Source of the DNA: Minisyncoccota bacterium | Lineage (GTDB): Bacteria > Patescibacteriota > Minisyncoccia > Phycocordibacterales > UBA9973 | Assembly: GCA_036169735.1 (NCBI GenBank) | Contig: JAVHNX010000009.1 | Span: 7,558-62,633, forward strand | Reading direction: 5' to 3' | Length of the DNA: 55,076 nt | In this document: positions 3 to 21,618 of the stretch, in pieces | Numbering within the stretch: position 1 is the first letter of the stretch | Layout: each line of letters opens with the position of its first letter | Program-made: the position numbers and the translations under genes | The notes under the pieces: generated by a model | Seen by the model: only the letters and a program-made list of their open reading frames with translations | What the model was told of the DNA's origin: nothing | Databases searched by the model: none

Positions 3-1883
3 AAGGCATACTATACAGACAATGGTACCGAAGTATCTAGCGCACTTTCTCCTGTTTCTTCAACAGTTTCTGTGCCAGTTTTGTGTAATGTTCCTCCTCC
101 AGGAGTTATTCCATCTGCTCCAACAAAATTATTATTGAATAGTATTTCAACTCCTCATTTTGTTTCAATTTATTGGATAGATAATTCTAGTAATGAAGAT
201 AAGTTTAATATTCAAAGAAAATTTAGTAGTGCTACCCAATGGTTTACTATTGGCCAAGTAGGTACAAATATTACTAATTTTATTGATTCGTCAAGTCTTT
301 CGGGTATTAGCTATGATTATCGTATTCAATCTTGTTTGTCTGGTATAGGCTGCTCTGATTATGCATATTTAACTGAAGTGAAAATTGAACCTGTTTTTAA
401 TAACACTACAACAACCCCACCACCAACCAATCAACCAAGTCCAACAAATCAACAAAGTCCAACATCACAACCATTCCCAACGACCAATCAACAGCTTCCA
501 TTGCCGACAACACAATATACACAACCAACAACAACACAGCATGTACCAACAACACAAAATAAAAAATCAATAACACAACAAGCACCAATAACCAATCAAC
601 AAAGTCCAACATCACAACCATTCCAAAGAGCTAATCAACAGTTTCCATCACCGACAACAAATCAACCAACATTAATACCAAATACAACCCCAGCAACAGA
701 GCAAATAAATCAAACAGAATCATCTGACAACATACCTCAAGCAACACCACAAGAAATTGTTGTTTCTGAGACTGCACCACCAACTGTATTTTCTTCACAA
801 GTTCAAGATTTAGGACTTGCTGTTGAAGGGTTTAAAAATTCAGTTGATAGTTCCAAAGAACAATTAGTAAGAACAATAAATGAAAACGTTGCAAATATTG
901 TTAATAATAACGATATATCTGGACAAGAAAATGATGTAGCTAAAATTAATATTTTACGTGATCAGCTATTAGAAAAAATTGATTTGAGACTATCATCTTC
1001 GACGACCATTACTACTTCTGATATAAACAATCTAAATTCAGAAATAAATAAAGGGATTAATAATATTAAATTGGCTGCAGGTGAAAATATAGCAACAACT
1101 CAAGCGAATAATGCTTCAGTAGATATCACAAAAACATTAAGTACTCTTTCAGAAACTGTAAATAATCAATCAGAAGTGTTAAAAGCAAATGGAGGTGATC
1201 TTCTTTATAAAGATAGTAACAAAGATGGTATATCTGACTATGATTCTGTTTATGTTTATAATTTGAACCCAGTAAAACCATCTCCAGTCTCTACTTACAA
1301 TGGAAAAAATATAACTGCTTCTGAAAAGGTTTTATTGGGACTTGATCCAACTAAAACTGAAATAGTAAAAGTAGAAAAAGAACAACCAATAGAGGCCAAG
1401 GCACCTGTTGTCGCTACATATAAAGTTGAAAAAGTGTCTTTAACAGAAAAGAAAGAAATTATTTTCAAGGGTAAGGCTTTACCTAATAGTTTCATAACTG
1501 TATATATTTATAGTACCCCTGTTATGGTAACTGTTAAAACAGATAGCAATGGAGAGTGGGTATATGTATTGGATAAAGAACTTGAAAACGGTGACCATAC
1601 CGTCTATACCGCTACTGTTAATAATTCTGGAAATATTATTGCAAAGAGTACCGGGTTTTTGTTTACTAAAACAGCAGAAGCTGCAACTCTCAAGGATATT
1701 TCTGCAACAGGAGCTTCTGTTAGTGTAGAGAAGCCAGGACTTTTTGAAGGTAATAGTATTTATATTATTTTGATAATAGTTTTTGCAGCTATTTTAATAA
1801 TATTAATTCTTGTTGGTTTGACCAGTAAAAGAAATAGAGAAAAAATTGAAAGAGAAGAGTCTGAAAGACATGTTCTTCATTAA
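3..1883 (+). CDS. Cell-surface protein, probably 5'-truncated by the window edge (FN3-like module, Pro/Thr/Gln-rich linker, Ig-like module, C-terminal TM anchor)
   Basis: The reading frame is open from position 3, with no stop before the GTG at 72 used by the ORF track. The translation shows an FN3-like segment (PSAPTKLLLNSIS..YWIDNSSNEDKFNIQRK..YDYRIQSC) and a PT/Q-rich linker with repeated TNQQSPTSQPF units. It also shows a DSNKDGISDYD Ca-loop-like motif, a beta-rich Ig-like segment, and a terminal hydrophobic helix followed by KRNREK. Confidence 0.6.
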   Translation, partial: KAYYTDNGTEVSSALSPVSSTVSVPVLCNVPPPGVIPSAPTKLLLNSISTPHFVSIYWIDNSSNEDKFNIQRKFSSATQWFTIGQVGTNITNFIDSSSLSGISYDYRIQSCLSGIGCSDYAYLTEVKIEPVFNNTTTTPPPTNQPSPTNQQSPTSQPFPTTNQQLPLPTTQYTQPTTTQHVPTTQNKKSITQQAPITNQQSPTSQPFQRANQQFPSPTTNQPTLIPNTTPATEQINQTESSDNIPQATPQEIVVSETAPPTVFSSQVQDLGLAVEGFKNSVDSSKEQLVRTINENVANIVNNNDISGQENDVAKINILRDQLLEKIDLRLSSSTTITTSDINNLNSEINKGINNIKLAAGENIATTQANNASVDITKTLSTLSETVNNQSEVLKANGGDLLYKDSNKDGISDYDSVYVYNLNPVKPSPVSTYNGKNITASEKVLLGLDPTKTEIVKVEKEQPIEAKAPVVATYKVEKVSLTEKKEIIFKGKALPNSFITVYIYSTPVMVTVKTDSNGEWVYVLDKELENGDHTVYTATVNNSGNIIAKSTGFLFTKTAEAATLKDISATGASVSVEKPGLFEGNSIYIILIIVFAAILIILILVGLTSKRNREKIEREESERHVLH

Positions 1884-2180: not shown

Positions 2181-3098
2181 TTATCTATTCAAAGGTAGTT
2201 CAATAAAAAATACCGCGCCTTTATTTCTTCCTTTTGATTTTGCATAAATTTTACCACCATGACGATCGATAATTTGTTTTGACAGATAAAGTCTTAATCC
2301 CATACCATCTGGATAGGCGAGTATTGCTTTCTTATTACGGAAAAATCTTGAAAAGATTCTCATCTTGTCATAAAAACTTAAACCCATACCTGTATCTGAA
2401 ATATAAAAAAGTAGTTTGTTATTTGATTTCAAAATACAATCAATTAATATTTTGCCGTCCTTAGGTGTGTAAACGATAGCGTTTTCTAAAAGTGCATCAA
2501 TTGTGAAAGTTATTTTTTTTAAATCGACAGTGAGCAGGGGAATATCTTTAAAAGTAGAAACTTGAAAAGTAATATTTTTTTTATTTATTTCTTCTCTGTA
2601 TTTTATTATTGATTTTTCTACGACGTCTCGAATGGATATTGCTACAAAGACGTAACCAGAAGTATTTTTAATATCTTTGATACCTGCAATCAAGTCAACA
2701 ATTTCTAGAAGTTTTTCTGTGGCATTATTTAAATTTTGAATATATAAAAGTTTTTCATCTTGGGACATATCTCTTTCTAGTTCTTTGCTGATCCAATTTA
2801 TTCGGGTGAGGGGAGTTCGAAAAGTATGGTTCACAATTGAAGTAAATTCGTGTTCTATCTTGTCGGTTGAGAGGCTTAGTTTTATAAAATAAAAAGAAAA
2901 ATATAATATGGATATAGAAGAGATTAAAGGAATGACCCATGAAGGAATAGTATAAAGTGAATCTAAATAATTAGGTTTAAATAATAGGAGAATAATACAA
3001 AATAAGTATAAAAGGATTATTAAACTTTTCGTGAATTTCCAAGTTTGTTGCATATGAATAGTATAACTCATATCTTTTATATATTGAAAGTTATCCAC
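2181..3098 (-). CDS. Membrane-bound sensor histidine kinase (HisKA + HATPase_c), no adjacent response regulator
   Basis: N-terminal hydrophobic helices. H-box FTSIVNHTFRTPLTRINW, N-box LLENAIVYTP, G-boxes SDTGMGL and GMGLRLYLSKQIIDRHGG. Confidence 0.85.
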   Translation of the reverse strand: MDNFQYIKDMSYTIHMQQTWKFTKSLIILLYLFCIILLLFKPNYLDSLYTIPSWVIPLISSISILYFSFYFIKLSLSTDKIEHEFTSIVNHTFRTPLTRINWISKELERDMSQDEKLLYIQNLNNATEKLLEIVDLIAGIKDIKNTSGYVFVAISIRDVVEKSIIKYREEINKKNITFQVSTFKDIPLLTVDLKKITFTIDALLENAIVYTPKDGKILIDCILKSNNKLLFYISDTGMGLSFYDKMRIFSRFFRNKKAILAYPDGMGLRLYLSKQIIDRHGGKIYAKSKGRNKGAVFFIELPLNR

Positions 3099-3421: not shown

Positions 3422-6400
3422 ATGAGTAAAAAAATATTTTCAGCATTAATAACTTTGGTCGCTGTTTTTTCTTTTTTTGTTATTACTCATAATGCTGAAG
3501 CGGCTACGAGCGGACCAAATAATCCAGCGACAGAAGTTGACGATAGCTCTGTCGGCACTATTACTTGGTCGAATCTTACCAGAGTTGTTTCTTCTAATAA
3601 TAGTTATGCGACTGCGAGTCTTAATGACAACATAATAAGTCATTACATAAAAGCTACTAATTTTGGATTCTCTATTCCTTCTGGTGCTACCATTAATGGT
3701 ATTACTGTTGAGGTGGAAAAAAAGGCCGCAACCGCGAGTCGAATTCAAGACTACAGAGTTAGAATTGTAAAGGGAGGAACCATTAGCACAAATGACAGAG
3801 CAAATGCTAATTTCTGGGGAAAATCTGATGCTTACACCACATATGGCAGTACTTCTGATTTGTGGGGAGAAACATGGACATACTCTGATATTAATAATGC
3901 CAATTTCGGAATAGCTTTTTCCGCATATAAAAATTCAACTGCAGGAGCAGGTGTGACTGCTTCTATTGATCACATTAGAATTACAATAACTTACACTGTT
4001 AACACCGCCCCTAATGCTCCGACGTTAGTATCACCAGCTAATGGTTCATACACTAACGACAACACTCCAACTTTATCAGCGAATTATTCAGATTCAGATA
4101 CTGGAGATACTGGAACTACAAATTATAGAATTGCAACAAGCGCGGCAAATTGTACAGCAGGTACAGTTGTGGCTAGTGGGACTTCAACTGCAACTTCAAC
4201 TAACAATGAAAATACAACTTGGACACCAATATCTTCAATAGGCGTTGATACAACTTATTATTGGTGCGCACAAAATAATGATGGTGTTCTCACTTCTTCT
4301 TGGACAAGTATGGGAAATTTTATTTTAGATACAACGAATCCAACTTCATCAATCACATCTCCAGCCAACAATTCATTTTCAACATCAACAACCATCGCCC
4401 TATCAGGTACCTCATCTGATACACATTTGTCTTCAACAACAATCTCTGTCGACAGTGGAAGTTTCGTAGCAACTAGTGGAACAGCTGCAGCTTGGACTTA
4501 CTCTGCCACTGCACTATCACAAGGCTCACATACTTTCCAAACCAAAGCGACTGACACTGCCGGTAACACAGGACTCTCATCTATCGTCACCGTGACAGTC
4601 GACTCTGTCGCCCCAACTCTTTCTCTAGTCCATATCCAATCTAACAACGCAACAACTTCAGTTGCAAAAACAGGGGACGTAGTCACATTAACTTTCACAT
4701 CATCTGAATCAACATCAACTCCAACTGTCACTATCGCTGGAGCTTCATCAACTGTAACCGGTGGCCCAACAGCATGGAGTGCAACACATACCATGCTCAT
4801 CACTGATACCGAAGGTACAGTTCCATTCACAATTAATTTTTCTGACCTAGCAGGAAATGCAGGTACACAAGTTTCAACAACAACTGATTCTTCAAGTGTT
4901 GTTTTTGATCGAACGAATCCAGATACTACTATCTTGACCCATCCTACTGATCCTACAAGTTCAACTTCCGCTTCCTTTACTTTCTCTTCCAATGAAGTTG
5001 GAGCAACCTTTGAATGTGATCTAGATGGAGCTGGTTACTCTTCATGCACTAGTCCAAAAAATTATACATCTCTATCTGATGGTTCACATACATTTTCTGT
5101 TAAGGCCACTGATACAGCAGGGAATATAGATCAAACACCGGCTACTTTTACTTGGAATATAGTTACTAATTTTACTTTCACTCGTCCAGCTTCCACTGGT
5201 ACAGGAACTGGAGTATATGGAGGGACATCTCCAGGCACAGTAAGTTCTGGAACTTCAGTATCTGTCACAGCTACACTTGATGCTAGTTCTAACTTTACAA
5301 GTTGGATAGCAACAGGAGCTGCTGCATCTTGTGATAGTACAACTTCATCTCCGTGTTCATTTACAATGACAGGCGATGCATCAGTTCAAGCAGTTTATAC
5401 TTTGAAAACTTTTACTCTTACTTATATTGCCGGAGCCAATGGTTCCATTACTGGCACAACACCTCAGACAGTTGATTACAATACTAGTGGAACAGAAGTC
5501 ATTGCAGTTGCAGATTCCGGTTATCATTTCACTTCATGGAGTGACGGAGTTTTGACTGCTGCTCGAACTGATTCAAATGTAGTTGCAAATATTTCTGTGA
5601 CTGCTACTTTTGTAGTTAATACACCTGTTCTTGATCATTTCACAATTGATACAATCAGTACTCAAACTGCTGGTACAGCTTTTGATATTGTTATTACTGC
5701 CAAAGATAACAGTGGCAGTACCGTGACTGGTTTTGTCGGTACTGTTGATTTAACCACTAATTCAGGTTCCATTAGTCCCACTACTTCTGGATCTTTTGTG
5801 GGAGGTATAAAAACAGAGAATGTTACTTTGACAGGTTATGGTGCAGGTAGAACAATCACTGCGACTCATACGGGTGGCACAGAAACTGGCACTTCTAATA
5901 CTTTCACTGTTAATTCTTCAGCAACCAAATTTGTTATTATAAATCCTACAGACAATACAGTCGGTAATAATGTTGATGTTACGATTCAAGCACAAGATGG
6001 TTCAGATACTTTAGTGAGTGACTACACAGGGGATGTTACTTTGGTATTATCTGGTGATGCAACTTTTGTGAGTGGTACTGGTTTAGTGCATTTGGTAAAT
6101 GGTACAGTTACAAAAAGTATTACTGATAATACGGCTCAGACAGTAGATTTATCTCTTCTTGATACTGCACTGACTAACTTAAATGTTAGTTCAACACAAG
6201 ATGTTATTTTTTCACCAGGCAATTTGCATCACTTTAGTTTTGACACTATTTCATCTCCCCAAATAGCCGGCTCAGATATTGGTGTAGTTATAACTGCAAA
6301 AGATATCCATAATAATACAGCAACTTCATTCACTAGTACGGTTGATTTCTCCACAACAGCTGGTAGTATCACACCAACTATTTCCAATAATTTTGTTTCT

Positions 6401-8842
6401 GGAGTATTGACTCAAAATGTAATAGTCACCCAATCTGGTGCAGGTAAGACTATTACTGCGACCAAGACAGGAGGTGCTGAAAATGGTATTAGTAATTCAT
6501 TTGTAGTTAACTCAGGAGTGACCGCGAAGTTTATTGTAAATAATCCAGGCAACATGACAGCTGGTACCAGAATAGGTTACACTGTCACACGTAAAGACCA
6601 AAACAATAATCTAGTTACTGGCGGGTCAGATGTAGTTTATCTTTATACTACATCAGGTGTTACTAGTAAATTTTACGATGAAGCGACAGACGGAACCGTA
6701 ATAACTTCTATCTCAATTCCTGACGGTCAATCATTAGTAAATTTCTGGTATTATGATGACAATGAAGGTACCTGGGTAATTACTGCTTCCAATCATACTT
6801 CTGCTACTGACGGAACTGATAGTATTATTGTAAGTATTGCTCCAGTTGCACCAACTCAATTCATCTTTGATGTAGTTTCCAGCGCTACTGTTGGAGATAC
6901 TGTCGTTGTCTCTATTAAAGCTGTAGATGGTGGTAATAATCTAGCTACTTCATACAGTCGAACAGATAGTTCTCTTGTTTTAAATTCTACTGGTAATTCT
7001 ACAGCCAATACAGGTATTAGTTTTAATATAAATAGTGGTGTGGGTACAATAAATATTTCTGATACTACAGCAGAAACTGTTACTTTGTCTTTAGCTGACA
7101 ACAATCCAGATGTTCCTCCTCTTAGTTTAAATACTCGAGATATAACTTTTAATCCGGATGTCTTTGATCACTTCAGTATGGATACTATTTCATCTCCCCA
7201 GACAGCCGGCTCAGATATTGGTGTAGTTATAACTGCAAAAGATATCCATAATAATACAGCAACTTCATTCACTAGTACGGTTGATTTCTCCACAACAGCT
7301 GGTAGTATCACACCAACTATTTCCAATAATTTTGTTTCTGGAGTATTGACTCAAAATGTAATAGTCACCCAATCTGGTGCAGGTAAAACAATTACTGCTA
7401 CAAAGACTGGTGATACTCAATTCTTTACGAGTAATACTTTTGATGTGAACCCTGGCACAGTTGCTAGTTTCATTGTTGAAGCGAGTGGTGGGGGTTCTAT
7501 TGGTACACAAACGATAGCTGTACCTTTTGATATTAAAATTACTGCAAAAGATTCTTTTGGTAATATAGCTACAGGTTTCACTGGTACGGCTGATATTTCT
7601 TCAACCGGTACACTTTCTTCTGGTAGTGGTATAACCTCTTCATTTACAGCAGGTATTTTATCTGCTCATTCTGTAACACTTTCCAATGCTGGTGCATTTA
7701 CAATAACAGCAACACATACAGGTGGATCTGAAACCGGTATTTCAAATAGCTTCACTGTTGCTTCTGCTGCGATTGTCGCGACAAAGTTTATTATAATCGA
7801 TCCATCCGATGTTCAAGTTGGAGGGTCAACAACAGTGACTGTGAAGGCTGTTGATGATCTAGGAAATGTTGATAGTACTTTCCAAGAAGATATTAATTTA
7901 GTTACTTCTGGTAGTGCCACAGGTTCAGGCCTTGTTGATATTATTAATGGTGTCGGTACTTTAAATATTTCTGATTCTATAGTTGAGACAGTCAATCTCT
8001 CCTTAAGCGATATTACACCACCAACAACTCTTATCTTCACCTCAACTCAAAATGTAATTTTCTCAGCAATTCCACCAGTAGTCTCCGGTGGTGGTGGAGG
8101 AGCGGTGAGTGTTTATGTAGCGCCCGTTATTCCAACAATATCTTTCTCTGGTCAAGCATTTCCAACCGGTAATTTAACCGCATTTGCTATTTCCAATGGG
8201 GCTATTCCTATAAAGCAAGATCTTGTGAAAACAACAGATGGTAAATTTAGTTTTAATTTTAGTTCCGCCTTATCAGACGCCAATCAATACGGTCTTCTAA
8301 TCACTGATAAGAATGGTCGTGTTTCTCAAGCTAAAATTTTTACTCTAAAAGATGGAGTTCCTAGTCTTGATGTAAAAGGTTTAGTTATGTCACCAACTGT
8401 TGATTTACTTAGAACTTATTTACCTAAAGGTGATTTCCTTTCTGTAAATGGTTTTACAACACCAAACAGTACAGTCCAGTTTGAAATAGATGGTACGGTT
8501 GTTGCTGATAAAGTAGTAGCAGCCACTGATGGCGCGTATAATCTTCTTTGGAACACAGCAGCACTTGGTTTAGGAAAACATAGTTTAAGAGTCAGACAGA
8601 CCACTTCTGAAGGATTCTTTAGTGAATTTTCTCCAACACAGGATTTTAATTTGACGAGATACTTGATAACGCCAACGGATTTTAATTCGGATGGTAAAAT
8701 AAATGTAAGTGATATGAGTATCTTTTTATCACTATGGTATAATAAAAATAATCTAGAAAGAACTAAAATAGATTTGAACCACGATGGCAAAGTGAATATT
8801 CAAGACTTAAGTATTTTCTCACGAACTATTTATAAAAAATAA
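3422..8842 (+). CDS. Giant secreted Ig-repeat adhesin-like protein (1806 aa) with C-terminal dockerin module
   Basis: Signal peptide MSKKIFSALITLVAVFSFFVITHNAEA. Many Ig-like modules (..SHTFSVKATDTAGN..), a Listeria-Bacteroides-type repeat (GYHFTSWSDG), and about 12 alternating ~95-aa modules (HFxxDTISxxxAG..ITAKD..TITATxTGG). The C-terminus carries a duplicated Ca-loop-helix, DFNSDGKINVSDMSIFLSLW / DLNHDGKVNIQDLSIFSRTI (nt ~8678-8830), matching the dockerin pattern. Confidence 0.85.
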   Translation: MSKKIFSALITLVAVFSFFVITHNAEAATSGPNNPATEVDDSSVGTITWSNLTRVVSSNNSYATASLNDNIISHYIKATNFGFSIPSGATINGITVEVEKKAATASRIQDYRVRIVKGGTISTNDRANANFWGKSDAYTTYGSTSDLWGETWTYSDINNANFGIAFSAYKNSTAGAGVTASIDHIRITITYTVNTAPNAPTLVSPANGSYTNDNTPTLSANYSDSDTGDTGTTNYRIATSAANCTAGTVVASGTSTATSTNNENTTWTPISSIGVDTTYYWCAQNNDGVLTSSWTSMGNFILDTTNPTSSITSPANNSFSTSTTIALSGTSSDTHLSSTTISVDSGSFVATSGTAAAWTYSATALSQGSHTFQTKATDTAGNTGLSSIVTVTVDSVAPTLSLVHIQSNNATTSVAKTGDVVTLTFTSSESTSTPTVTIAGASSTVTGGPTAWSATHTMLITDTEGTVPFTINFSDLAGNAGTQVSTTTDSSSVVFDRTNPDTTILTHPTDPTSSTSASFTFSSNEVGATFECDLDGAGYSSCTSPKNYTSLSDGSHTFSVKATDTAGNIDQTPATFTWNIVTNFTFTRPASTGTGTGVYGGTSPGTVSSGTSVSVTATLDASSNFTSWIATGAAASCDSTTSSPCSFTMTGDASVQAVYTLKTFTLTYIAGANGSITGTTPQTVDYNTSGTEVIAVADSGYHFTSWSDGVLTAARTDSNVVANISVTATFVVNTPVLDHFTIDTISTQTAGTAFDIVITAKDNSGSTVTGFVGTVDLTTNSGSISPTTSGSFVGGIKTENVTLTGYGAGRTITATHTGGTETGTSNTFTVNSSATKFVIINPTDNTVGNNVDVTIQAQDGSDTLVSDYTGDVTLVLSGDATFVSGTGLVHLVNGTVTKSITDNTAQTVDLSLLDTALTNLNVSSTQDVIFSPGNLHHFSFDTISSPQIAGSDIGVVITAKDIHNNTATSFTSTVDFSTTAGSITPTISNNFVSGVLTQNVIVTQSGAGKTITATKTGGAENGISNSFVVNSGVTAKFIVNNPGNMTAGTRIGYTVTRKDQNNNLVTGGSDVVYLYTTSGVTSKFYDEATDGTVITSISIPDGQSLVNFWYYDDNEGTWVITASNHTSATDGTDSIIVSIAPVAPTQFIFDVVSSATVGDTVVVSIKAVDGGNNLATSYSRTDSSLVLNSTGNSTANTGISFNINSGVGTINISDTTAETVTLSLADNNPDVPPLSLNTRDITFNPDVFDHFSMDTISSPQTAGSDIGVVITAKDIHNNTATSFTSTVDFSTTAGSITPTISNNFVSGVLTQNVIVTQSGAGKTITATKTGDTQFFTSNTFDVNPGTVASFIVEASGGGSIGTQTIAVPFDIKITAKDSFGNIATGFTGTADISSTGTLSSGSGITSSFTAGILSAHSVTLSNAGAFTITATHTGGSETGISNSFTVASAAIVATKFIIIDPSDVQVGGSTTVTVKAVDDLGNVDSTFQEDINLVTSGSATGSGLVDIINGVGTLNISDSIVETVNLSLSDITPPTTLIFTSTQNVIFSAIPPVVSGGGGGAVSVYVAPVIPTISFSGQAFPTGNLTAFAISNGAIPIKQDLVKTTDGKFSFNFSSALSDANQYGLLITDKNGRVSQAKIFTLKDGVPSLDVKGLVMSPTVDLLRTYLPKGDFLSVNGFTTPNSTVQFEIDGTVVADKVVAATDGAYNLLWNTAALGLGKHSLRVRQTTSEGFFSEFSPTQDFNLTRYLITPTDFNSDGKINVSDMSIFLSLWYNKNNLERTKIDLNHDGKVNIQDLSIFSRTIYKK
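6265..6447 (+). repeat. Intragenic direct repeat, copy 1 (183 bp, identical to 7204-7386)
   Basis: I aligned the two stretches by eye. They match base for base from agccggctcagatattgg to caatctggtgcaggtaa. The flanks diverge within a few bases. Confidence 0.85.
7204..7386 (+). repeat. Intragenic direct repeat, copy 2 (offset 939 bp = 313 codons, in frame)
   Basis: Same 183-bp block as 6265-6447. The encoded peptide SDIGVVITAKDIHNNTATSFTSTVDFSTTAGSITPTISNNFVSGVLTQNVIVTQSGAGK occurs twice in the ORF translation. Confidence 0.85.
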
Positions 8843-8844
8843 TT

Positions 8845-10581
8845 ATGAATAAAAATAAAAAAAATATTAAGAATAATAATAATAAATGGTGGGTGAGTGG
8901 TCTTGTGATTGCAGCTTTTGTTTTGTTTTTTCCTTACGGAGTAAATGCTGCGACAATAAATCTTTTTAGTAACAAAGATTCTTTGTCGATTGGTGACGAG
9001 TTTAGTATTGATTTGAAAATAGACAGTGAAAGTGTCGGTATTAATGCGGCACAAGCTACTCTGCAATATACCAAAGATTTGGTTAGTGTTGTGAATGTTG
9101 ATAAAACTGATTCAGTTTTGAATTTTTGGTTAGTTGAACCTTCTGTTGATAAGACTCTTGGTACTATCAATTTTATTGGTGGATCAACAAGTGGTTTATC
9201 TGGTAAATCCCTACAGGTTTTAAGGGTTGTGTTTAAAGTGATAGGCACAGGCACTATAAGTTTGACTCTCAATGACTCAGCGGTTACTGCGAGTGATGGT
9301 TCTGGTACAAATGTATTAACAGCGACCAAGGGGATTGAACTTAGTAGCTTAGTGAAAACAACTGTTTCTGTTATTGTTCCCACTGTAACAAATCCAACCC
9401 CGGAAATTGCCCCTAACGCTCCAGCCAAGCCAGTCATTTCTGTTTTATTGTATCCAAAACCGGACAGTTGGCATGATGTCTCACAAAATTTTGTTGTTAA
9501 CTGGAATTTACCAAAAGACGTCACGGAGGTTGCAGCGGTGTTAAATAAAATTCCAGTTTTCAATCCATCTACTGGAGAGGGTCTTTTTGATAATAAATCA
9601 TTTCCACCTCTTGGTAATGGTGTATCATATTTGCATATACGTTTCAAAAATAATATCGGTTGGGGTATTACCAATAATTATAGGATTGCCATTGATACTG
9701 TTCCTCCACTTCCTTTTAAGGTTTCATCTGTTGATGGATTTAAGACTGAGAATCCTTCACCATCATTTTCTTTCAGTACTAGTGATAGTATTTCTGGAAT
9801 TGCAAATTATATAGTACGCATAGATAATACTAATGAAATTATTTCCCAAAAAGAGACGTTAATTTTGCCTGTATTAAGTCCTGGTCAGCATCGTGTCGTT
9901 GTCCAAGCTATTGATAGTGCTGGGAATTCTGCAGAGGATAGTGTTAGTTTAGAAATCGTACCTTTGGCTACACCGACCGTTGGGTTGTTTAATAAATCTG
10001 TTTCTTTTGGGGAATTTGTTTATGTTTCTGGAAAAGTTAATGCAGGATTGGGTGTGCAAGTTAAATTGAATAGTTTGAATGGGCAAGAAGTGTTTAATGG
10101 AAAAGGAACAGTTGATTCGTCTGGAAATTGGGACATCTTAATTAAAAATCCATTACCTGTTGGTCAATATACATTGACAGTCGTAGCGATAAACGACCTA
10201 GGTGCTTCGAGTTATCCTGCAGAAACTCAATTTATAAATATACGAGCTCAGCCTATTATTTCGATTGGTTTTTTACAATTAGGCTGGTCTGAGATTGTTC
10301 TTTTGTTGATATTTATTTTTATAGCAATAGCTGGTTTTTATGGTTGGTATTATGTTTCTAGAAAAAATAAAAGTGATGCTTATAAAACAGTTATTGGAAT
10401 GGATGTAAGAAAATTAACAGCAATATTAGAAAATGATTTACACTCTTTAAAAGAGACTCACATGTCTTTAAAACCAATTGCAAGCAAAGAAGCAGAAGTC
10501 GAAACTCGTATTGATAAAATGCAAGAAAATATAAATAAAATGAAAAAATACTTACCTGCTGAGATTGAAAAGATTGGCTAA
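8845..10581 (+). CDS. Cohesin-domain surface protein with C-terminal TM anchor and cytoplasmic coiled-coil tail
   Basis: Signal peptide ..LFFPYGVNA. The mature N-terminus ATINLFSNKDSLSIGDEFSIDLKIDSESVGINAAQATLQYTKDLVSVVNV..GTINFIGG..LQVLRVVFKVIGTGTISL (nt ~8950-9340) fits the cohesin beta-sandwich pattern (GDxFxVxVxV..INAxxxxLxY..L). Ig-like modules follow, then the TM helix IVLLLIFIFIAIAGFYGWYYV and a ~75-aa charged tail. The start lies 2 nt after the stop of the dockerin protein. Confidence 0.6.
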   Translation: MNKNKKNIKNNNNKWWVSGLVIAAFVLFFPYGVNAATINLFSNKDSLSIGDEFSIDLKIDSESVGINAAQATLQYTKDLVSVVNVDKTDSVLNFWLVEPSVDKTLGTINFIGGSTSGLSGKSLQVLRVVFKVIGTGTISLTLNDSAVTASDGSGTNVLTATKGIELSSLVKTTVSVIVPTVTNPTPEIAPNAPAKPVISVLLYPKPDSWHDVSQNFVVNWNLPKDVTEVAAVLNKIPVFNPSTGEGLFDNKSFPPLGNGVSYLHIRFKNNIGWGITNNYRIAIDTVPPLPFKVSSVDGFKTENPSPSFSFSTSDSISGIANYIVRIDNTNEIISQKETLILPVLSPGQHRVVVQAIDSAGNSAEDSVSLEIVPLATPTVGLFNKSVSFGEFVYVSGKVNAGLGVQVKLNSLNGQEVFNGKGTVDSSGNWDILIKNPLPVGQYTLTVVAINDLGASSYPAETQFINIRAQPIISIGFLQLGWSEIVLLLIFIFIAIAGFYGWYYVSRKNKSDAYKTVIGMDVRKLTAILENDLHSLKETHMSLKPIASKEAEVETRIDKMQENINKMKKYLPAEIEKIG

Positions 10582-10640: not shown

Positions 10641-11615
10641 ATGGAAGACAATAATAAAATAAATAGTGAATCAGATTGCGAACAATTTTTTAGTTTATCT
10701 TCTGATATTATGGTTATAGCTGACCCGAATGGTGCTTTTAAGAGGGTGAACCCAGCTTGTTTAAAAGTACTGGGATATTCTGAAGATGAAATTTTATCAA
10801 AACCTTTTATTGATTTCGTTTATCCTGACGATAAACAATCAACACTCGATGAAATGGCCCGACAAATTAAAATAGGTTACTCATCAAATTTTGAGAATCG
10901 TTATATTTGCAAAAATGGTAAAATATTGTGGTTTTCATGGCATTCAAGTTTTAATAAAGATAAAGGAGTCACATATGCTATTGCACGTGATATTACTGAG
11001 CACAAAAGATTGGAGGAAGAATTATTAAAAGCTAGTGGTCATAGATATAAAGCTCTTTTTTTATCATCTCGTGATGCTATAATGACCCTTGAACCACCGG
11101 AATGGAAATTTACTTCAGTTAATCCTGCAACAATAAAATTATTTGGAGCTAGTAGTGAAGGAGATCTTCTGTATCATGAACCTTGGGTCTTGTCTCCTTT
11201 ATTACAACCAGATGGAAGTCGTTCAGACGAAAAATCAAAAGAGATGATAGAAAAAGCAATGAAAGAGGGATCAAATTTTTTCGAGTGGACTCATAAAAGA
11301 TTAAATGGAGATGAGTTCCCAACAGAAGTACTTTTGTCAAAAGTAGAACAGAATAGTAATACCTTTCTTCATGCTGTTGTTCGGGATATTTCTGAGCGCA
11401 AAAAAATAGAAGAAAAAATTAAAGAGGTCAATAAGGAACTTGAGACTAAAATAAATGAACGAACAGAAGAACTTTCTAATAGAATAAAAGAACTCGAAAG
11501 TTTTAATAAAGTTATGATTGGTAGAGAATTAAAAATGGTAGAACTAAAAAAAGAAAATGAAGAGTTGATGGAAAAAATTAAAAAATGTAATGATAGTGAT
11601 AATAAAAATATTTAA
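10641..11615 (+). CDS. Cytoplasmic tandem-PAS protein with C-terminal coiled coil, no recognisable output domain
   Basis: Two PAS-like segments (..IMVIADPNGAFKRVNPACLKVLGYSEDEILSKPF..ARDITEHKRLEEEL and ..AIMTLEPPEWKFTSVNPATIKLFG..VVRDISERKKIEEKI). They are followed by a heptad-rich ELETKINERTEELSNRIKELESFNKVMIGRELKMVELKKENEEL. Confidence 0.75.
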   Translation: MEDNNKINSESDCEQFFSLSSDIMVIADPNGAFKRVNPACLKVLGYSEDEILSKPFIDFVYPDDKQSTLDEMARQIKIGYSSNFENRYICKNGKILWFSWHSSFNKDKGVTYAIARDITEHKRLEEELLKASGHRYKALFLSSRDAIMTLEPPEWKFTSVNPATIKLFGASSEGDLLYHEPWVLSPLLQPDGSRSDEKSKEMIEKAMKEGSNFFEWTHKRLNGDEFPTEVLLSKVEQNSNTFLHAVVRDISERKKIEEKIKEVNKELETKINERTEELSNRIKELESFNKVMIGRELKMVELKKENEELMEKIKKCNDSDNKNI

Positions 11616-11618
11616 TAT

Positions 11619-12321
11619 ATGAATTTAGCTCAAAAGGGTATAATTACTTCTGTAAAACAAATTGCTATGCGTACTACTGAAGTGGTAATCAAAGTGCCTG
11701 CGGATTTTAATTTTATTGCAGGACAATACATTTGGCTTCAGATTCCTATCTTAAAATATCCTGATGTAAAAGGTAACACCCGAATGTTTTCTATAAGTTC
11801 TTCTCCAAATAAAAAGGGCGAATTGGGTATTGTTTTTAGAAATACTGAAAGTGGATACAATAAAACTTTAACAGAAATTATACCTGAGACCGAGGTTATT
11901 TTTTCAGGACCTTTTGGACCTCTGAAGCTTCCGGAAAATAATTCATTGCCTATTGTTTTTTTGGCGGGTGGAATTGGAGTATCTCCATTTTTAAGTATGA
12001 TTCGTTTTTCAAATGAAAATCATTCGAGTCGTAAGATTATACTTATCTATGTAAATACAAATGAAAAAGAGATAGTATATCTTGATGAATTAAGGAAGAT
12101 AGAAAAAGAAAACTCAAATTTTAAACTTTATTGTACTTGTGGTCTCTTAAAAGAAAGAGTTTTGAAGGATTCACTAGGTGAGCTTATTAACCAAAAGGTT
12201 ATTTGGTCAGTTATTGGACCTAAAGGTTTTGTTGATTTCGTTAGTAAATATTTAAATGAAAAAGGCATATCCCCACAAGATATAATTTTTGAACAATTTT
12301 ATCCAGACCCATCTCTAAAAA

Positions 12322-12329
<8 letters not shown>
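11619..12329 (+). CDS. FNR-like FAD/NAD(P)H oxidoreductase (ferredoxin-NADP reductase family fold)
   Basis: FAD-binding RxFS motif (TRMFSISSSP), a GPFG segment, and the NAD(P)-binding GGIGVSPFLSM. Size 236 aa. The start is 3 nt after the PAS gene stop, and the stop overlaps the next gene's start by 8 nt. Confidence 0.7.
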
Positions 12330-14121
<1,792 letters not shown>

Positions 14122-14159: not shown

Positions 14160-14555
14160 ATGAATCAAACGAAAATTCTTTTAGTTGAAGATGATAAAAT
14201 ATTGGCCAAAGTTCTTTATGAAGAATTAAGTGAGGCTGGTTTTGATGTAAAACAAGCATTTGATGGTGGTTCTGTTTTGGGTATGGCTAAGGAAGAAAAA
14301 TCAGATTTAATTTTGCTTGATCTTATTTTGCCCAAAAAACATGGTTTTGAAGTTTTAGAAGAACTTAAGAAATCCGCCAAAACAGCAAGTATTCCTGTAG
14401 TCATCCTTACAATGTTGGGCAGTGATGAAGATTTGAAAAAAGGTCTTCAGCTTGGTGCTGATGATTATATCGTAAAATCTCAGCATGCCGTCGGAGAAAT
14501 TGTTGAGAAGGTAAAAGCTTTTATTGAAAAACAAAAAGAAAATACTTTAGTTTAA
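14160..14555 (+). CDS. Single-domain response regulator (receiver only, CheY-like)
   Basis: Receiver signature LLVEDD .. LILLDLILP .. VVILTMLG .. YIVKS. At 131 aa there is no room for an output domain. Confidence 0.9.
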   Translation: MNQTKILLVEDDKILAKVLYEELSEAGFDVKQAFDGGSVLGMAKEEKSDLILLDLILPKKHGFEVLEELKKSAKTASIPVVILTMLGSDEDLKKGLQLGADDYIVKSQHAVGEIVEKVKAFIEKQKENTLV

Positions 14556-14588
14556 AAATCTAAATTTAAAAATAATTTTTTATTAAAA

Positions 14589-14966
14589 ATGAACAATGAT
14601 AAAATAAAAGTAGTTCTTATAGTGGAAGATGATAAAGTTATTTCTGATGCATTAAATGAAGAGTTTTTAGAGGCTGGTTTTGAGGTAATACAAGCCTTTG
14701 ATGGAGTACAGGGATTAGACTTAACCAAAACTCACAAACCAAATTTAATTCTTTTGGATATTATGATGCCAAGGAAAAATGGTTTTGAAATGTTGAAGGA
14801 ACTCAAAGAATCACCAATAACAAAAAATATTCCTGTGATTGTCTTGACTGCTTTAGGTCAAAATGATGATATAAAAAAAATAATAGATCTCGGAGCAGAA
14901 GGTTATATAGTAAAATCTGGAAAATCTCTCACTCAAGTTTTGGAGGAAGTAAAGATTTTTCTTTAA
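14589..14966 (+). CDS. Single-domain response regulator (receiver only), paralog of the preceding gene
   Basis: LIVEDD .. LILLDIMMP .. VIVLTALG .. YIVKS. 125 aa. Confidence 0.9.
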   Translation: MNNDKIKVVLIVEDDKVISDALNEEFLEAGFEVIQAFDGVQGLDLTKTHKPNLILLDIMMPRKNGFEMLKELKESPITKNIPVIVLTALGQNDDIKKIIDLGAEGYIVKSGKSLTQVLEEVKIFL

Positions 14967-15867: not shown

Positions 15868-16902
15868 ATGGAAAAAAAGAGATTAGAAATCATATCGTTT
15901 TCAGTTCTTTGTGCAGGGATATTAGTCCTGACATTTTTTGTTTTTCGACCATTTTTAAGTATTCTAGTTTTGGCTGCAGTCTTGAGTATGCTTTTTCGAC
16001 CATTGTACAAAAAAATGCTGCATTCCTACAAGGGAGGTAAAAGTTTTTTTGCTATTATAATAGTACTTCTAGGTCTTGTTTTTCTAATAATTCCAATTAT
16101 ATTTTTTGGGTTACAAATTCTAGGTCAAATACAGGTTCTTTTTTCTTCAATTCAAAATGATCCAGGTCAATCGATCCAGGTTGTGCAGTCTACTATCGAA
16201 TCTATTGCTCAGCCGTTGTTTCCAAATTTTTCTTTTCATATATCTGATTATGCTTCTACTGTGCTTTCTTTTGTTTCAAACAATTTCAGTACACTTTTAT
16301 CACAAACAGCTTATTTGTTTTTTCAAACACTCTTTCTTTTAATCACATTCTTTTTCTTCTTGCGTGATGGCGAAAAAATATTTTCTTCGTTAATTTCATT
16401 GAGTCCTTTTGGAAAAGAACAAAATAAAGAAATTCTTGGGTCTGTACATAAGGCCGTAACATCAGTAATAAGAGGTACACTTCTTGTTGGATTAATACGT
16501 TGGGTTCTTTTGACGACTGTATTTTTCTTATTTGGTATTCCTAATGCTTTAATATGGGGAAGTATTGCAGGTATTATTGGGATAATACCTGGGGTTGGTA
16601 CTCCTTTTGTTATTATACCGACCGTTGTTTATTTGATACTTACTGGTAATATTTTTTCGGCAATTGGAATAGGTTCATCGGGTATTCTAATCATCTTTTT
16701 TGTCGACAATATGCTTTCTGTTTATTTTTTTGGTAAGGGCTTAGAAGCACCGTCTATTTTTATTCTTTTTTCCATTATCGGTGGAGTAATATTTTTTGGT
16801 CCACTTGGTTTTATTTTTGGACCAATAGTTTTGTCTCTCTGTATTTCTATGATAGAGATGTATAAAATACTTCTACAAAAAACAAAAGAGCTACCAGGTT
16901 AA
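15868..16902 (+). CDS. AI-2E (PerM/UPF0118) family transporter
   Basis: 344 aa polytopic membrane protein with FFFLRDGEKI and ..VIRGTLLVGLI.. segments typical of the family. Confidence 0.7.
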   Translation: MEKKRLEIISFSVLCAGILVLTFFVFRPFLSILVLAAVLSMLFRPLYKKMLHSYKGGKSFFAIIIVLLGLVFLIIPIIFFGLQILGQIQVLFSSIQNDPGQSIQVVQSTIESIAQPLFPNFSFHISDYASTVLSFVSNNFSTLLSQTAYLFFQTLFLLITFFFFLRDGEKIFSSLISLSPFGKEQNKEILGSVHKAVTSVIRGTLLVGLIRWVLLTTVFFLFGIPNALIWGSIAGIIGIIPGVGTPFVIIPTVVYLILTGNIFSAIGIGSSGILIIFFVDNMLSVYFFGKGLEAPSIFILFSIIGGVIFFGPLGFIFGPIVLSLCISMIEMYKILLQKTKELPG

Positions 16903-16924
16903 GTTTTGGTTAATTTTATAAAAA

Positions 16925-18838
16925 TTAAAATAATGAATTTAAGAGTTTTTCAAGAGAAATTGTAGCAACTCCGACTACACTATCAGCTCCTCCATAATAC
17001 ATAAATAGTGTGCCATTTCTAACTGTCGTACCACAAGGAAAAACTACATTTGGAATCACTCCAAATTTTTCATAAGGAGTTTCTGGTTGGAATATTGGTT
17101 GACTGGCTCTAGCTATCACATTAGTTGGGTTGTGAAGGTCTAAAAGGGCCAATCCCACTCGATAAGTGTGGTGATTGGAAGAAACACCATGATACAGTAA
17201 CAACCATCCTTTTGAGGTCTTTATTGGAGGTGCAGTGATGCCAACTTTTTGACTATCCCACATGCCTTTTCTTGGAAGAAGGATTGGTGTTGCGATATGG
17301 AGTGGTCCATTTATAAAATCTAGAGAATCAACATAGTTTGCGCAGATATCAGAATACACTCTGTGTAAAATTAAATATTTTTCATATATTTTTTCTGGAA
17401 AAACACAGGCATCTTTATCGTCTATATTTGGAGGAGAAATAATAATTGGTTTTTTCCAGTCCCATTTTTTATTTAAAAAATTTTCTTTGCTAATAGAAGT
17501 TAATGCAACTCTGGGAGGATTTATGCCATTGTAAGCTGTATAGCACATATAAATTTCGTCATCGATTAGAGTTAGGCGCGGGTCTTCACATCCACTATTT
17601 CCTGGATGACTTTTATTTTCAAAAAGTTCTCTCGGGACATAAATAGGTCTATCTTCTCTATAGGAAATATTGTAGCCGTCTTCTGAAGAAGCATAACCGA
17701 CATAAGAAGTGTCATCTTCAGACATGGCACGATAAAGTATGTGAGTTGTATTTCCTATTTGAATTGAAGCAGGATTAAAAACTCCGTGCATTTCCCATGA
17801 TACACCTTCCCTTGGGGTAAGGATTGGATTTTTTTCATACCTAGTAAAATAAGTACTCATGGAATTTGGCATTAGACCACTTAAAAGATTATCTAAATTG
17901 ACCGAAGCTCTGGCACAGACAGAGTCGGCTGCTCCGTAATATATTTCTAATTTTTTTTCATTTATTAACGCACCAGAAGGAAATACAATATTTGGAATCT
18001 GACCGAATCTTTCATAAATTTCGGTGGGAGTAAACATTGGACCTTTAGTACAGCCAATTATTTTTTTAGGATTATTTAAATCTAAAAGTAATGCTTCTAT
18101 ACCAAAGACCTTTTGAAAGGGATTGTTTTCTTTGAAGTAATTTTCTATGTGACTATAAATAAATAACCAACCTTCTTTTGTTTTTATTGGGACAGCTCCG
18201 ACTTCAACATGATCATAATTTGTCCTGCGTGGATCTATGCTATGTTGGTCTAATTCTCTATACCATTTATCCCAGTATAATGGATCCCACATATCTTCTA
18301 ATTTATCGAATTCGGCAAAACATATTTTTGCTGGTGGTAGATCGGTATTTACAGATAAAACCGCGACGTATTTACCATTTATTTTTTCTGGAAATAGAGC
18401 CATCGCTTTTGCGTTAAAAGGAGTAATAAGATATTTTTCTTCTACACTTTTAAAATCTTTTGTTATTGCGACAGCAATTTTTATGCCTTCTGCGTTGAAA
18501 GGATAATTTGAAAGGGCAGTATAAAAGATGTAAAATTTGTCATCTATTTTAGTAACTCTTGGATCTTCACAACCGTATCTTTCCCAATAATGTTCTGGGG
18601 CTATTAGTTGTCTTCTTTCAGAAAAACTTGTTCCATCCTCGCTTGAGGTGTAACCAATAGAAGAGATGTTCATGCTGCCACCGAAATAAGATTCGGAAGA
18701 AGACATTGCTCTGTAAACATAATGTATTTTTTTGCCATCTCTTACTGGGCACCAATTAAAAACCGCCTCAGCTTCCCAAGGTTCACTTGCATTAGGGGAT
18801 AGTATGGGGTTACGTGGTGATTTTTTTATTGTGAACAT
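16925..18838 (-). CDS. Tandem double GH130-like (beta-mannoside phosphorylase family) protein
   Basis: Two ~310-aa halves each begin with ..NPIL(S/T)P.. and contain the GH130-type GCEDPR motif (GCEDPRVTKIDDKFYIFYTA; GCEDPRLTLIDDEIYMCYTAY). Each half ends in ..YYGGADSV / YYGAADSV. Confidence 0.7.
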   Translation of the reverse strand: MFTIKKSPRNPILSPNASEPWEAEAVFNWCPVRDGKKIHYVYRAMSSSESYFGGSMNISSIGYTSSEDGTSFSERRQLIAPEHYWERYGCEDPRVTKIDDKFYIFYTALSNYPFNAEGIKIAVAITKDFKSVEEKYLITPFNAKAMALFPEKINGKYVAVLSVNTDLPPAKICFAEFDKLEDMWDPLYWDKWYRELDQHSIDPRRTNYDHVEVGAVPIKTKEGWLFIYSHIENYFKENNPFQKVFGIEALLLDLNNPKKIIGCTKGPMFTPTEIYERFGQIPNIVFPSGALINEKKLEIYYGAADSVCARASVNLDNLLSGLMPNSMSTYFTRYEKNPILTPREGVSWEMHGVFNPASIQIGNTTHILYRAMSEDDTSYVGYASSEDGYNISYREDRPIYVPRELFENKSHPGNSGCEDPRLTLIDDEIYMCYTAYNGINPPRVALTSISKENFLNKKWDWKKPIIISPPNIDDKDACVFPEKIYEKYLILHRVYSDICANYVDSLDFINGPLHIATPILLPRKGMWDSQKVGITAPPIKTSKGWLLLYHGVSSNHHTYRVGLALLDLHNPTNVIARASQPIFQPETPYEKFGVIPNVVFPCGTTVRNGTLFMYYGGADSVVGVATISLEKLLNSLF

Positions 18839-18842
18839 AAAT

Positions 18843-20865: not shown

Positions 20866-21618
20866 ATGGATTTTAGAAACAAAAAAGTTATAGTTTTTGA
20901 CCTAGATGGTACTTTAGCAGAAAGTAAGCAGGGTTTGGATCAAGAAATGGTAAGTCTTTTGAATGAACTTTTAGGTGTCAAAAAAGTGGCTATTATTACC
21001 GGGGGTGGTTTTCCTCAGTTGCAGAAGCAGGTAATTAACCATCTTGCTTCTGATATTGAGAAACTTAAAAATCTGTATATTTTCCCCACTAAAGGAGCGA
21101 TGATGTATAATTTTAATGGTAGGGACTGGAATAAAATATATGAGCATCAATTAGTAGAGCAAGATAAAAAAAAGATTCTAGATGCATTTGACCATATGTA
21201 TAAGGAAGTAGATTTTTTACCAAAAGAAACTTTTGGAGAAACACTTGAAGACAGGGGAACTCAATTTACTTTTTCAGCTTTGGGACAAGAGGCTCCTGTA
21301 GAACTAAAAAAAGTTTGGGATATAGACGTCTTAAAAAGAAAAGAAATTAAAAAGATTTTGGATAAATATTTACCTGATTTTTCTGTTGAGATTGGCGGTA
21401 TGACATCTGTTGATATTACAGAAAAAATGATTGATAAAGGTTTTACAATAGAAAAAATTTGTGAGTATTTAAATATTAAGGTAGATGAGGTATTATTTGT
21501 TGGTGACGCTATTTTTGAAGGAGGTAATGATTTTTCTGTAGTAAAAACAGGAGTATCATATATTAATGTACATAATGTCGATGAAACAAAAAATATAATT
21601 AAAGAAATAATATTATGA
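20866..21618 (+). CDS. Eukaryote-type phosphomannomutase (HAD-IIB, PMM family)
   Basis: FDLDGTLAESKQ..EM..LL, GGGF..L..Q, FSALGQEAP, IGGMTSVDIT..DKG and FVGDAIFEGGNDFSV align by eye with the human PMM2 pattern (FDVDGTLT.., VSPIGRSCS, IGGQISFDVFP..WDK, FFGDKTMPGGNDHEI). Confidence 0.7.
   Translation: MDFRNKKVIVFDLDGTLAESKQGLDQEMVSLLNELLGVKKVAIITGGGFPQLQKQVINHLASDIEKLKNLYIFPTKGAMMYNFNGRDWNKIYEHQLVEQDKKKILDAFDHMYKEVDFLPKETFGETLEDRGTQFTFSALGQEAPVELKKVWDIDVLKRKEIKKILDKYLPDFSVEIGGMTSVDITEKMIDKGFTIEKICEYLNIKVDEVLFVGDAIFEGGNDFSVVKTGVSYINVHNVDETKNIIKEIIL

Follow-up and report, generated by a model that had tools for sequence, protein, structure and literature searches.

How does a bacterium belonging to the candidate phyla radiation (CPR) keep a very large secreted protein on its surface, and could such a protein take part in attachment to a host? 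To our knowledge, little is understood of how CPR/Patescibacteria attach to their hosts, and the majority of them have not been cultivated. The question is raised by two adjacent genes in a 55,076-nt stretch of DNA from a Minisyncoccota bacterium (contig JAVHNX010000009.1, positions 7,558 to 62,633 of the forward strand), the whole of which is referred to below as the window. Gene D encodes a secreted repeat protein that ends in a dockerin, and gene C encodes a membrane protein that begins with a cohesin. Here we describe the identity of both modules, the topology of the two proteins, the conservation of the gene pair, its design of constant anchor and variable cargo, and its linkage to two-component genes. 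In our judgement there is roughly a three-in-four chance that D and C form a cognate, Ca2+-dependent cohesin-dockerin pair that tethers a large surface protein non-covalently.

The window is a chromosomal piece of low GC content (~31-38%) that carries one tRNA, the beginning of a 16S rRNA gene, and the protein genes rpoB/rpoC, dnaG, rpoD, and uvrB; its nearest public relative is a metagenome-assembled genome labelled 'Minisyncoccia bacterium' (L004), with ~93% overall nucleotide identity. Scanning with our own hidden Markov models (HMMs) revealed exactly one dockerin and one cohesin in the 55 kb. The two genes and their parts are as follows (Ig, immunoglobulin; ORF, open reading frame; AF2, AlphaFold2):

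3422..8842, plus strand: gene D, secreted Ig-repeat-rich surface protein of 1806 aa with a C-terminal dockerin (ORF, signal peptide, Pfam)
3503..8038, plus strand: variable head and stalk of D, aa 28-1539, consisting of an N-terminal domain without a family, InlB-B-type repeats, and Ig-like repeats
8039..8674, plus strand: conserved module of D that precedes the dockerin, aa ~1540-1751, a pair of Ig-like domains common to relatives
8675..8830, plus strand: dockerin, aa 1752-1803, two Ca-loop/helix repeats (PF00404, solved dockerins)
8845..10581, plus strand: gene C, type-I membrane anchor with a cohesin, 578 aa (ORF, homologues, AF2)
8845..8949, plus strand: signal peptide of C, aa 1-35, likely cleaved between VNA and AT (hydrophobic helix at aa 13-28 in the model)
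8950..9351, plus strand: cohesin module, aa 36-169, nine-strand β-sandwich (PF00963, AF2, Foldseek)
9412..9744, plus strand: β-domain next to the cohesin, aa ~190-300, with many invariant aromatic and Gly/Asp positions
9745..10284, plus strand: two Ig-like stalk domains of C, aa ~301-480 (Pfam Big_13 38.7 bits, Y_Y_Y 28.9 bits; β-domains in AF2)
10285..10356, plus strand: single transmembrane helix of C, aa ~481-504 (hydropathy window; helix from aa 481 in the model)
10357..10578, plus strand: charged, helical cytoplasmic tail of C, 74 aa (modelled helices 481-540 and 545-577)

An earlier, sequence-only reading of this DNA had proposed a 1806-aa secreted Ig-repeat protein with a duplicated C-terminal dockerin, followed 2 nt past its stop codon by a 578-aa protein with a cohesin at its mature N-terminus, a single transmembrane helix, and a ~75-aa charged tail, neither protein having an LPXTG signal. 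This description held in every part. The D-C junction reads TAA-TT-ATG, so that ORF C begins 2 nt past the D stop codon; the strings quoted in that reading were found in the translations (DFNSDGKINVSDMSIFLSLW ... DLNHDGKVNIQDLSIFSRTI at the C-terminus of D, and SIGDEFSIDLKIDSESVGINAAQATLQYTKDLVSVVNV ... LQVLRVVFKV in C); and the HMM searches it called for placed both modules above their cutoffs, the cohesin when scanned as an isolated module.

Several comparisons show that the C-terminus of D is a true dockerin. Dockerin_1 (PF00404, type I-like) matched aa 1752-1802 with 28.7 bits against a cutoff of 22.9, and a phmmer search of the PDB returned solved Clostridium thermocellum dockerins (4fl4, 2mte, and 1daq; E 8e-5 to 1e-4) with both repeats aligned. 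The repeats, DFNSDGKINVSD and DLNHDGKVNIQD, form two tandem F-hand (loop-helix) units of ~22 residues with D/N at loop positions 1, 3, 5, 9, and 12, and across 73 homologous tails conservation at the Ca-liganding positions of the two loops is 79-100%. When the C-terminal 284 aa of D served as query in a word-indexed search for homologues, only 3 proteins were retrieved, all of which carry a precomputed PF00404 call; the analysis by locus described below told far more.

Scanned alone, the cohesin module of C matched Cohesin PF00963 with 25.9 bits, and 5 of 6 family members matched as well (best E 2.5e-9); many full-length homologues, 37-53% identical to C across 94-100% of its length, carry a precomputed PF00963 call, and several have been named 'cohesin domain-containing protein' independently by the NCBI pipeline. 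Searching the PDB with the module as a single sequence (phmmer) gave no matches, and a 6-sequence profile gave sub-threshold matches only, the top four of which were cohesins. The identity of the module was settled instead by comparison of folds. An AF2 model of aa 34-180, built from a 69-sequence alignment, has nine main strands, a predicted local distance difference test score (pLDDT) of 93.8, and a predicted template modelling score of 0.85. The best 50 Foldseek matches of this model in the PDB are all cohesins (E 5e-8 to 6e-6; TM-score 0.6-0.77), spanning types I, II, and III, the cohesins of C. perfringens, and the non-cellulosomal cohesin of Archaeoglobus fulgidus. As modelled, the fold thus confirms a genuine cohesin. 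The full-length anchor (AF2 pLDDT 85.7) is uninformative on this point in Foldseek searches, where generic multi-Ig chains dominate and the cohesin-containing entry 2w1n appears at rank 30.

Conservation within the cohesin is unevenly distributed. Among residues conserved in at least 90% of sequences, 22 of 31 fall on strands 3, 5, 6, and 8 and the adjoining loops, against 6 (p 6e-4), and include the motifs NAAQ, FNFWL, FIGG, and A-V/I-TASDGSGTN. With strands assigned from known cohesin topology, this suggests that the conserved residues sit on the canonical dockerin-binding sheet 8-3-6-5. The neighbouring β-domain (aa ~190-300) is as conserved as the cohesin itself, with 11 invariant positions in 21 sequences and the motifs LYPDP..WYN, SEGLFDNK, WYLHVRFKNNIGWG, and HYRIAIDT.PP; no Pfam, NCBIfam, or PDB profile matched it.

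Both proteins carry features of export, and those of C indicate retention in the membrane. The signal peptide of D is of the Sec type (...HNAEA before the cleavage site, AT after it), and in C the corresponding A-x-A/A-T motif is kept family-wide, A35 and A36 being nearly invariant or invariant. Basic residues directly follow the transmembrane helix of C, in keeping with a tail inside the cell. A search of D and C for LPXTG-like motifs ([LIV]PX[TSA]G) returned none, and Pfam detected no S-layer homology (SLH) domain in either.

Relatives of C were sought with the cohesin module alone as query. At E <= 1e-3 an exhaustive profile search returned 9,876 cluster representatives, of which 649 reached E <= 1e-30, and the best 150 relatives are mostly 560-600 aa long with the module at the N-terminus. 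A single strict motif-seeded scan, limited to one genome per species, yielded 74 loci, nearly all of them titled Patescibacteria/CPR and including Wolfe-, Nomura-, Staskawicz-, Yonath-, Colwell-, Jorgensen-, Magasanik-, Falkow-, Uhr-, Buchanan-, Azam-, Lloyd-, Harrison-, and Adlerbacteria as well as Paceibacterota. ORFs were called in all loci by a longest-ORF start rule and searched with our own HMMs, which identified 77 dockerin-ending ORFs. The sequence-only reading had named conservation of the two genes as neighbours as a check, and this was amply borne out: immediately upstream of at least 72 of the 79 cohesin ORFs, and on their strand, lies a dockerin ORF, the spacing between the two running from -44 to +239 nt (median ~8 nt). 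A further three show small overlaps with an upstream dockerin ORF, attributable to the start rule. The exceptions are a case at the edge of a contig, a second cohesin that follows a first, a locus in which a receiver gene separates the two genes, and a short contig without a dockerin neighbour. Contigs reached independently by exact protein look-up contained the same pair in 2 of 3 cases, and a second dockerin gene lay within 10 kb in only 1 of 77 loci. Since the arrangement recurs in more than 70 other genomes, it is far beyond what chance would produce.

Some relatives depart from the simple pair. One locus (L062) carries a second, divergent cassette at 15883-19807, ~6 kb downstream of its canonical pair on the same contig, in which a gene for a 546-aa dockerin protein is followed by genes for two shorter cohesin proteins (336 and 404 aa). 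Some cohesin relatives have two cohesin modules in 700-900 aa. The deep search also returned, from outside the window, a scaffoldin-like protein of 2276 aa (P0011) with 9 Pfam cohesins (E 1.4e-82), Big_7, fn3, and a C-terminal dockerin, the best module of which scores 219 bits against the CPR-type cohesin profile.

Across the family the two proteins differ greatly in constancy. The anchor has a median length of 575 aa, a transmembrane helix within the last 140 aa in 67 of 75 complete homologues, and a tail whose presence and length are conserved (median 83 aa). Complete cargo proteins are 407-2737 aa long, the longest partial one having 3288 aa, and all share only their last ~260 aa, comprising two Ig-like domains and the dockerin. 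With a constant anchor and a cargo that shares its C-terminus only, the pair is built as a socket and a plug that are both conserved, plus an outward part that can be exchanged. Mean pairwise distances agree with this design, the dockerin (0.48) and the cohesin (0.51) being the slowest-evolving parts, compared with 0.57 for the middle of the anchor, 0.67 for the pre-dockerin region, and 0.74 for the tail, the least conserved part of the anchor. The same pattern is visible between the window and its strain-level relative L004, where the dockerin is identical and the cohesin 99.3% identical, versus 65-96% for the remainder and 87% for the transmembrane helix and tail. The same comparison gives 98-99% identity for the receiver, BrkB, and AI-2E genes, against 65-89% for the strongly diverged sensors nearby.

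Within D, the contrast between plug and outward part is equally clear. The pre-dockerin stretch (aa ~1540-1751) finds a match in 64-74 of 74 related dockerin proteins, whereas any given part of aa 28-1539 is matched in merely 1-30 of 74. Pfam assigned to D InlB-B-type Flg_new_2 repeats, the Ig-like Big_13, Big_7, and Big_6 domains, and then Dockerin_1, with no catalytic domain or carbohydrate-binding module (CBM) above threshold; the N-terminal tip (aa 28-210) has no Pfam or NCBIfam match. In the pre-dockerin region Big_6 scores 28.6 bits, above its cutoff, and Big_7 and Big_13 match weakly. The conserved Ig-Ig stretch of ~210 aa that precedes the dockerin in all 74 relatives takes the position of an X-module, without sequence similarity to solved X-modules; searched against the PDB, the region gave no sequence match.

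The D gene also contains a 300-nt direct repeat (6194-6493 and 7133-7432), the copies of which have an overall identity of 87% and share a 68-nt core at 100% (6290-6357 and 7229-7296). This is a recent duplication of an Ig-like block, the ~100-aa protein segments being nearly identical, and a possible substrate for length variation by recombination. The GC content of the D gene at 4001-8000 is 0.37-0.41 compared with 0.30-0.32 in the flanks, which probably reflects its Thr/Ser/Gly/Ala-rich repeats rather than foreign origin.

Taken as a mechanism, these features would work as follows. D and C would both be exported via Sec signal peptides. C would be retained in the membrane by its one C-terminal helix with the tail inside, and its three β-domains would act as a stalk that raises the N-terminal cohesin off the membrane. 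D would be secreted, and its C-terminal Ig-Ig-dockerin would plug into the cohesin of C; we infer that the two bind physically and in a Ca-dependent manner, possibly aided by the Ig-Ig module and by the unclassified anchor domain at aa 190-300. The remainder of D, with its variable Ig-like and InlB-B-type repeats and novel N-terminal tip, would form an outward fibre and the working end of the complex. This fibre is most probably an adhesin for a host cell or surface, a role that fits its Ig/InlB-repeat content, its hypervariability, and the lifestyle of these organisms. D and C constitute a fixed two-gene unit across Paceibacteria/Minisyncoccia-type CPR, set within a cassette of PAS kinase and stand-alone receiver genes.

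The genes around the pair in the window follow the order H' D C PAS FNR-like PAS-HK R R (H', divergent histidine kinase; HK, histidine kinase; R, receiver). A divergent histidine kinase and downstream PAS, kinase, and receiver genes had been noted earlier, and all were matched by Pfam:

2181..3098, minus strand: membrane histidine kinase, 305 aa, divergently transcribed (HATPase_c 53 bits, HisKA 22.8 bits)
10641..11615, plus strand: PAS-domain protein, 324 aa, first gene 3' of the anchor (PAS_9 87.8 bits)
12322..14121, plus strand: PAS-PAS-HisKA-HATPase histidine kinase, 599 aa, with two N-terminal transmembrane-like segments
14160..14966, plus strand: two stand-alone receiver (CheY-like) genes, 14160-14555 and 14589-14966 (Response_reg 82.6 and 90 bits)

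The kinases and receivers of the window have the domains that define two-component proteins (HisKA with HATPase_c, and Response_reg), and Pfam detected no output domain in either receiver. The divergent kinase has two N-terminal transmembrane-like segments separated by a short loop. Between the PAS protein and the PAS kinase lies a gene for a small FNR-like oxidoreductase (11619-12329, 236 aa; FAD_binding_6 and NAD_binding_1) that overlaps the kinase start by 8 nt and is a conserved neighbour in just 2 of 76 loci; it may provide a lineage-specific redox input to the kinase. When 10641-12329 is compared with L004 3396-4685, identity is 65% for the FNR-like protein and 82% for the PAS kinase, and the PAS protein aligns from residue 126 only (89%), its first ~125 residues, corresponding to the N-terminal PAS domain, being unmatched. 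Promoter and terminator consensus scans around the operon gave results at or below shuffled expectation and were uninformative.

The suggested link between the pair and signalling was upheld at the level of synteny, 64 of 73 loci having a receiver or kinase no more than two genes away from the pair. Receivers occupy position +1 in 60% of loci and position -1 in 41%, compared with a background of 1.6% at a distance of five genes or more (Fisher p ~3e-29, a value that overstates independence, the loci being from related genomes), and stand-alone receivers are the most tightly linked neighbour class of the pair in other genomes. Recurring layouts are 'D C R [PAS-HK R]' and 'PAS-HK R D C', and some loci have both. 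In one locus (L074; D430 R134 C583) a stand-alone receiver lies between the dockerin and cohesin genes, a further sign of the close tie between receiver and pair. Of 113 receivers, 105 are <=160 aa long, stand-alone, CheY-like, and without a DNA-binding output; lacking an output domain, they must act by protein-protein contact. The PAS kinase and receivers probably control or report the state of the surface complex.

A more ambitious and rather unlikely proposal is that the cassette is an attachment-sensing device of these ultra-small cells, in which load on or occupancy of the cohesin-dockerin joint would be relayed to the PAS kinase and CheY-like receivers, or the relay would run in reverse and control adhesin presentation, the signal passing via the transmembrane helix and tail of the anchor or via a membrane kinase. 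If true, this would let the cell 'know' that it is sitting on a host, and the cohesin-dockerin joint would be a mechanical coupling in signalling, beyond its use as glue. A variant in which linked kinases read the anchor helix by intramembrane sensing was rejected as a feature of the pair in general; it fits the two kinases of the window but not the family, in which the number of transmembrane segments and the loop length vary widely.

Comparison with known cohesin-dockerin systems shows which parts of this arrangement have precedents. In Ruminococcus flavefaciens, the X-dockerins of CttA and ScaB bind the single, type III cohesin of the cell-wall anchor ScaE, encoded in the sca gene cluster; ScaE is covalently fixed to peptidoglycan by sortase (LPXTG), and the system is part of a cellulosome. 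As in the window, an adhesin or large protein plugs a C-terminal dockerin into a one-cohesin anchor, the genes are neighbours, and an Ig-like module precedes the dockerin; moreover, R. flavefaciens cohesins (5lxv, 5n5p, and 5aoz) are among the top fold matches of the window cohesin. Unlike ScaE, the window anchor is a transmembrane protein with a cytoplasmic tail, has no LPXTG motif or enzymes, and is linked to two-component genes, and its partner's pre-dockerin region gave no sequence match to solved X-modules. In C. thermocellum, the type II X-dockerin of CipA, an enzyme-loading scaffoldin, binds the type II cohesins of the SLH-anchored SdbA, OlpB, and Orf2p. Here too the dockerin is on a large secreted protein and the cohesin on a cell-bound anchor, and a type II cohesin (5k39_A, TM-score 0.73) is among the best structural matches of the window cohesin. 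The differences are that the window has a transmembrane helix in place of SLH wall anchoring, that the C. thermocellum cargo is an enzyme-loading scaffoldin, and that a constant-anchor/variable-cargo gene pair with receivers is found in the window family and is not known from C. thermocellum.

Use of these modules outside plant cell-wall degradation also has precedents, namely the A. fulgidus cohesin and the GH84/GH33 toxin complexes of C. perfringens (2jh2, 2vo8, and 2w1n). Non-cellulosomal cohesins featured in the fold search as well, with 2jh2 at rank 1, 2vo8 (C. perfringens) at TM-score 0.75, and 2xdh (A. fulgidus) at 0.77. Unlike the window pair, the non-cellulosomal modules, as represented by these two species and by accounts of the survey of Peer et al. 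(2009), are scattered and mostly without a defined partner or conserved operon, and none of these cases is known to pair, throughout an entire radiation, a transmembrane-anchored socket with a hypervariable fibre and a cassette of two-component genes.

A precedent by context comes from Southlakia epibionticum, a cultivated Saccharibacterium, where Wang et al. (2023, PMC10633639) found SEML1_0315, an envelope protein with a dockerin domain, to be essential. According to the supplementary tables of that paper, SEML1_0315 lies directly downstream of a PAS histidine kinase (0318), a 393-nt receiver gene encoding 130 aa (0317), and tRNA-Glu. The kinase was non-essential in 3 of 3 calls and the receiver non-essential in two and growth-defective in one, and the authors read the dockerin as glycan-related and name no cohesin partner (PMC10633639). 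Likened by context and domains, SEML1_0315 resembles D in being an Ig-rich secreted dockerin protein of a CPR bacterium in the order 'PAS-HK R D', as in 21 of our loci.

Overall, the cassette departs from described anchoring pairs in its transmembrane anchor with a cytoplasmic tail, its lack of enzymes, its fixed two-gene unit with hypervariable cargo, and its linkage to a phosphorelay over a large share of the CPR. No description of a D-C cassette in CPR was found in open-access papers and bioRxiv preprints, an earlier description elsewhere being possible. The pair therefore looks like a conserved, so far undescribed way to plug a surface fibre onto the cell.

A number of observations weigh against a cognate tether that presents an adhesin. 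Scanned as a whole protein, C scores 21.2 bits against Cohesin PF00963, marginally under the cutoff of 24.1. A mirror-tree analysis with partial Mantel correlations gave 0.28 for dockerin and cohesin controlled for the middle of the anchor, versus 0.31 for dockerin and middle controlled for cohesin, and hence nothing beyond shared ancestry. The loci come from related genomes, so that counts are not fully independent events, and the dockerin counts cover the 55-kb window and the studied loci rather than whole genomes, leaving room for other partners of the cohesin. Pfam recognised no ligand-binding domain in D that would indicate its target. In S. epibionticum, no cohesin gene is annotated beside SEML1_0315, the next gene being an α/β hydrolase on the other strand (PMC10633639). 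Finally, direct coupling of the anchor tail to a kinase or receiver is weakened by the poor conservation of the tail and the heterogeneous architectures of the kinases.

These points bear differently on the alternatives. The tether may be real but hold a structural part of the envelope in place of a host adhesin, for instance a coat of the S-layer type, a fibre acting as spacer, or a strut that spans the wall and keeps the envelope intact. We regard this as unlikely, though worth serious consideration: the pair is widespread and apparently core to these lineages, the Southlakia dockerin protein is essential for growth, D lacks a recognisable ligand-binding domain, and the top whole-chain Foldseek match is an S-layer protein, though generic Ig arrays dominate that search. 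Southlakia is, however, grown on its host, where essentiality does not separate the two roles, and the extreme variability of distal D in length and content between species, together with its recent internal duplications, is more typical of interaction or recognition proteins than of coats that form a lattice. It is improbable that the anchor is instead a general socket for several dockerin proteins, or for another one, adjacency to D meaning co-expression only. One cellulosomal cohesin type commonly takes many dockerins, relatives exist with two cohesins and one with nine cohesins plus a dockerin, and the second cassette of L062 places two cohesin genes after one dockerin gene; yet the window holds a single dockerin gene, and a second within 10 kb is confined to 1 of 77 loci. 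Near-universal one-to-one adjacency and the conserved Ig-Ig-dockerin module mark the neighbour as at least the principal partner.

It would be more surprising still if the modules did not interact at all, the cohesin fold being a plain β-sandwich or glycan binder and the dockerin a Ca-stabilised C-terminal cap, with some other cause for the adjacency of the genes. The missing signal of specific co-evolution is in keeping with such a scenario, as is the existence of many non-cellulosomal cohesin- and dockerin-like modules for which, by the account of Peer et al. (2009) given in PMC10066038, no partner has been demonstrated. Against it, adjacency persists over lineages merely ~40-50% identical, cohesin and dockerin are the most conserved parts of their proteins, conservation of the cohesin appears to centre on the canonical binding sheet, and the Ca loops are intact in all dockerins. 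Hardly any weight attaches to a minimal cellulosome-like system that arrays polysaccharide-degrading enzymes on the surface, for all that a cohesin-dockerin pair is the hallmark of cellulosomes and two GH130 genes lie 6 kb downstream (16925-20714). D has no catalytic domain or CBM above threshold, there is one cohesin in the anchor, GH130 is the only domain seen in the GH130 proteins, which have no dockerin by our own model, and their genes are not conserved neighbours of the pair. In the absence of enzymes and of multiple cohesins, identity with a cellulosome or amylosome was rejected. A cognate cohesin-dockerin tether between D and C, with D as the probable adhesin, remains the reading we prefer.

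Elsewhere in the window, two further large surface proteins have a C-terminal single transmembrane helix and a short charged tail like those of the anchor. The first (72-1883, plus strand) combines a P/T/Q-rich linker with Big_13, and its ORF probably extends past the window start; the second (51661-54195, minus strand) combines TIG with repeated β-domains. Since they share this feature with the anchor, C-terminal transmembrane anchoring seems to be the general mode of surface-protein retention in this organism. The two GH130 genes (minus strand) encode tandem proteins of ~630 aa, each with a C-terminal GH130 domain (β-1,4-mannooligosaccharide phosphorylase) and an unassigned N-terminal half, and are followed by a PMM/HAD-type phosphatase gene at 20866-21618.

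The analysis defines a module with three components, namely a constant cohesin socket, an exchangeable, fast-evolving fibre with an Ig-Ig-dockerin plug, and a linked phosphorelay. The D and C modules involved are short and, as recombinant proteins, amenable to standard binding assays. A tether of this kind would extend the cohesin-dockerin principle to transmembrane-anchored, enzyme-free surface display, and may explain why one cultivated Saccharibacterium cannot do without a dockerin protein. For CPR bacteria more generally, the D-C pair is a concrete candidate for an attachment apparatus, and its variable cargo may serve as a marker of host range in metagenomes.

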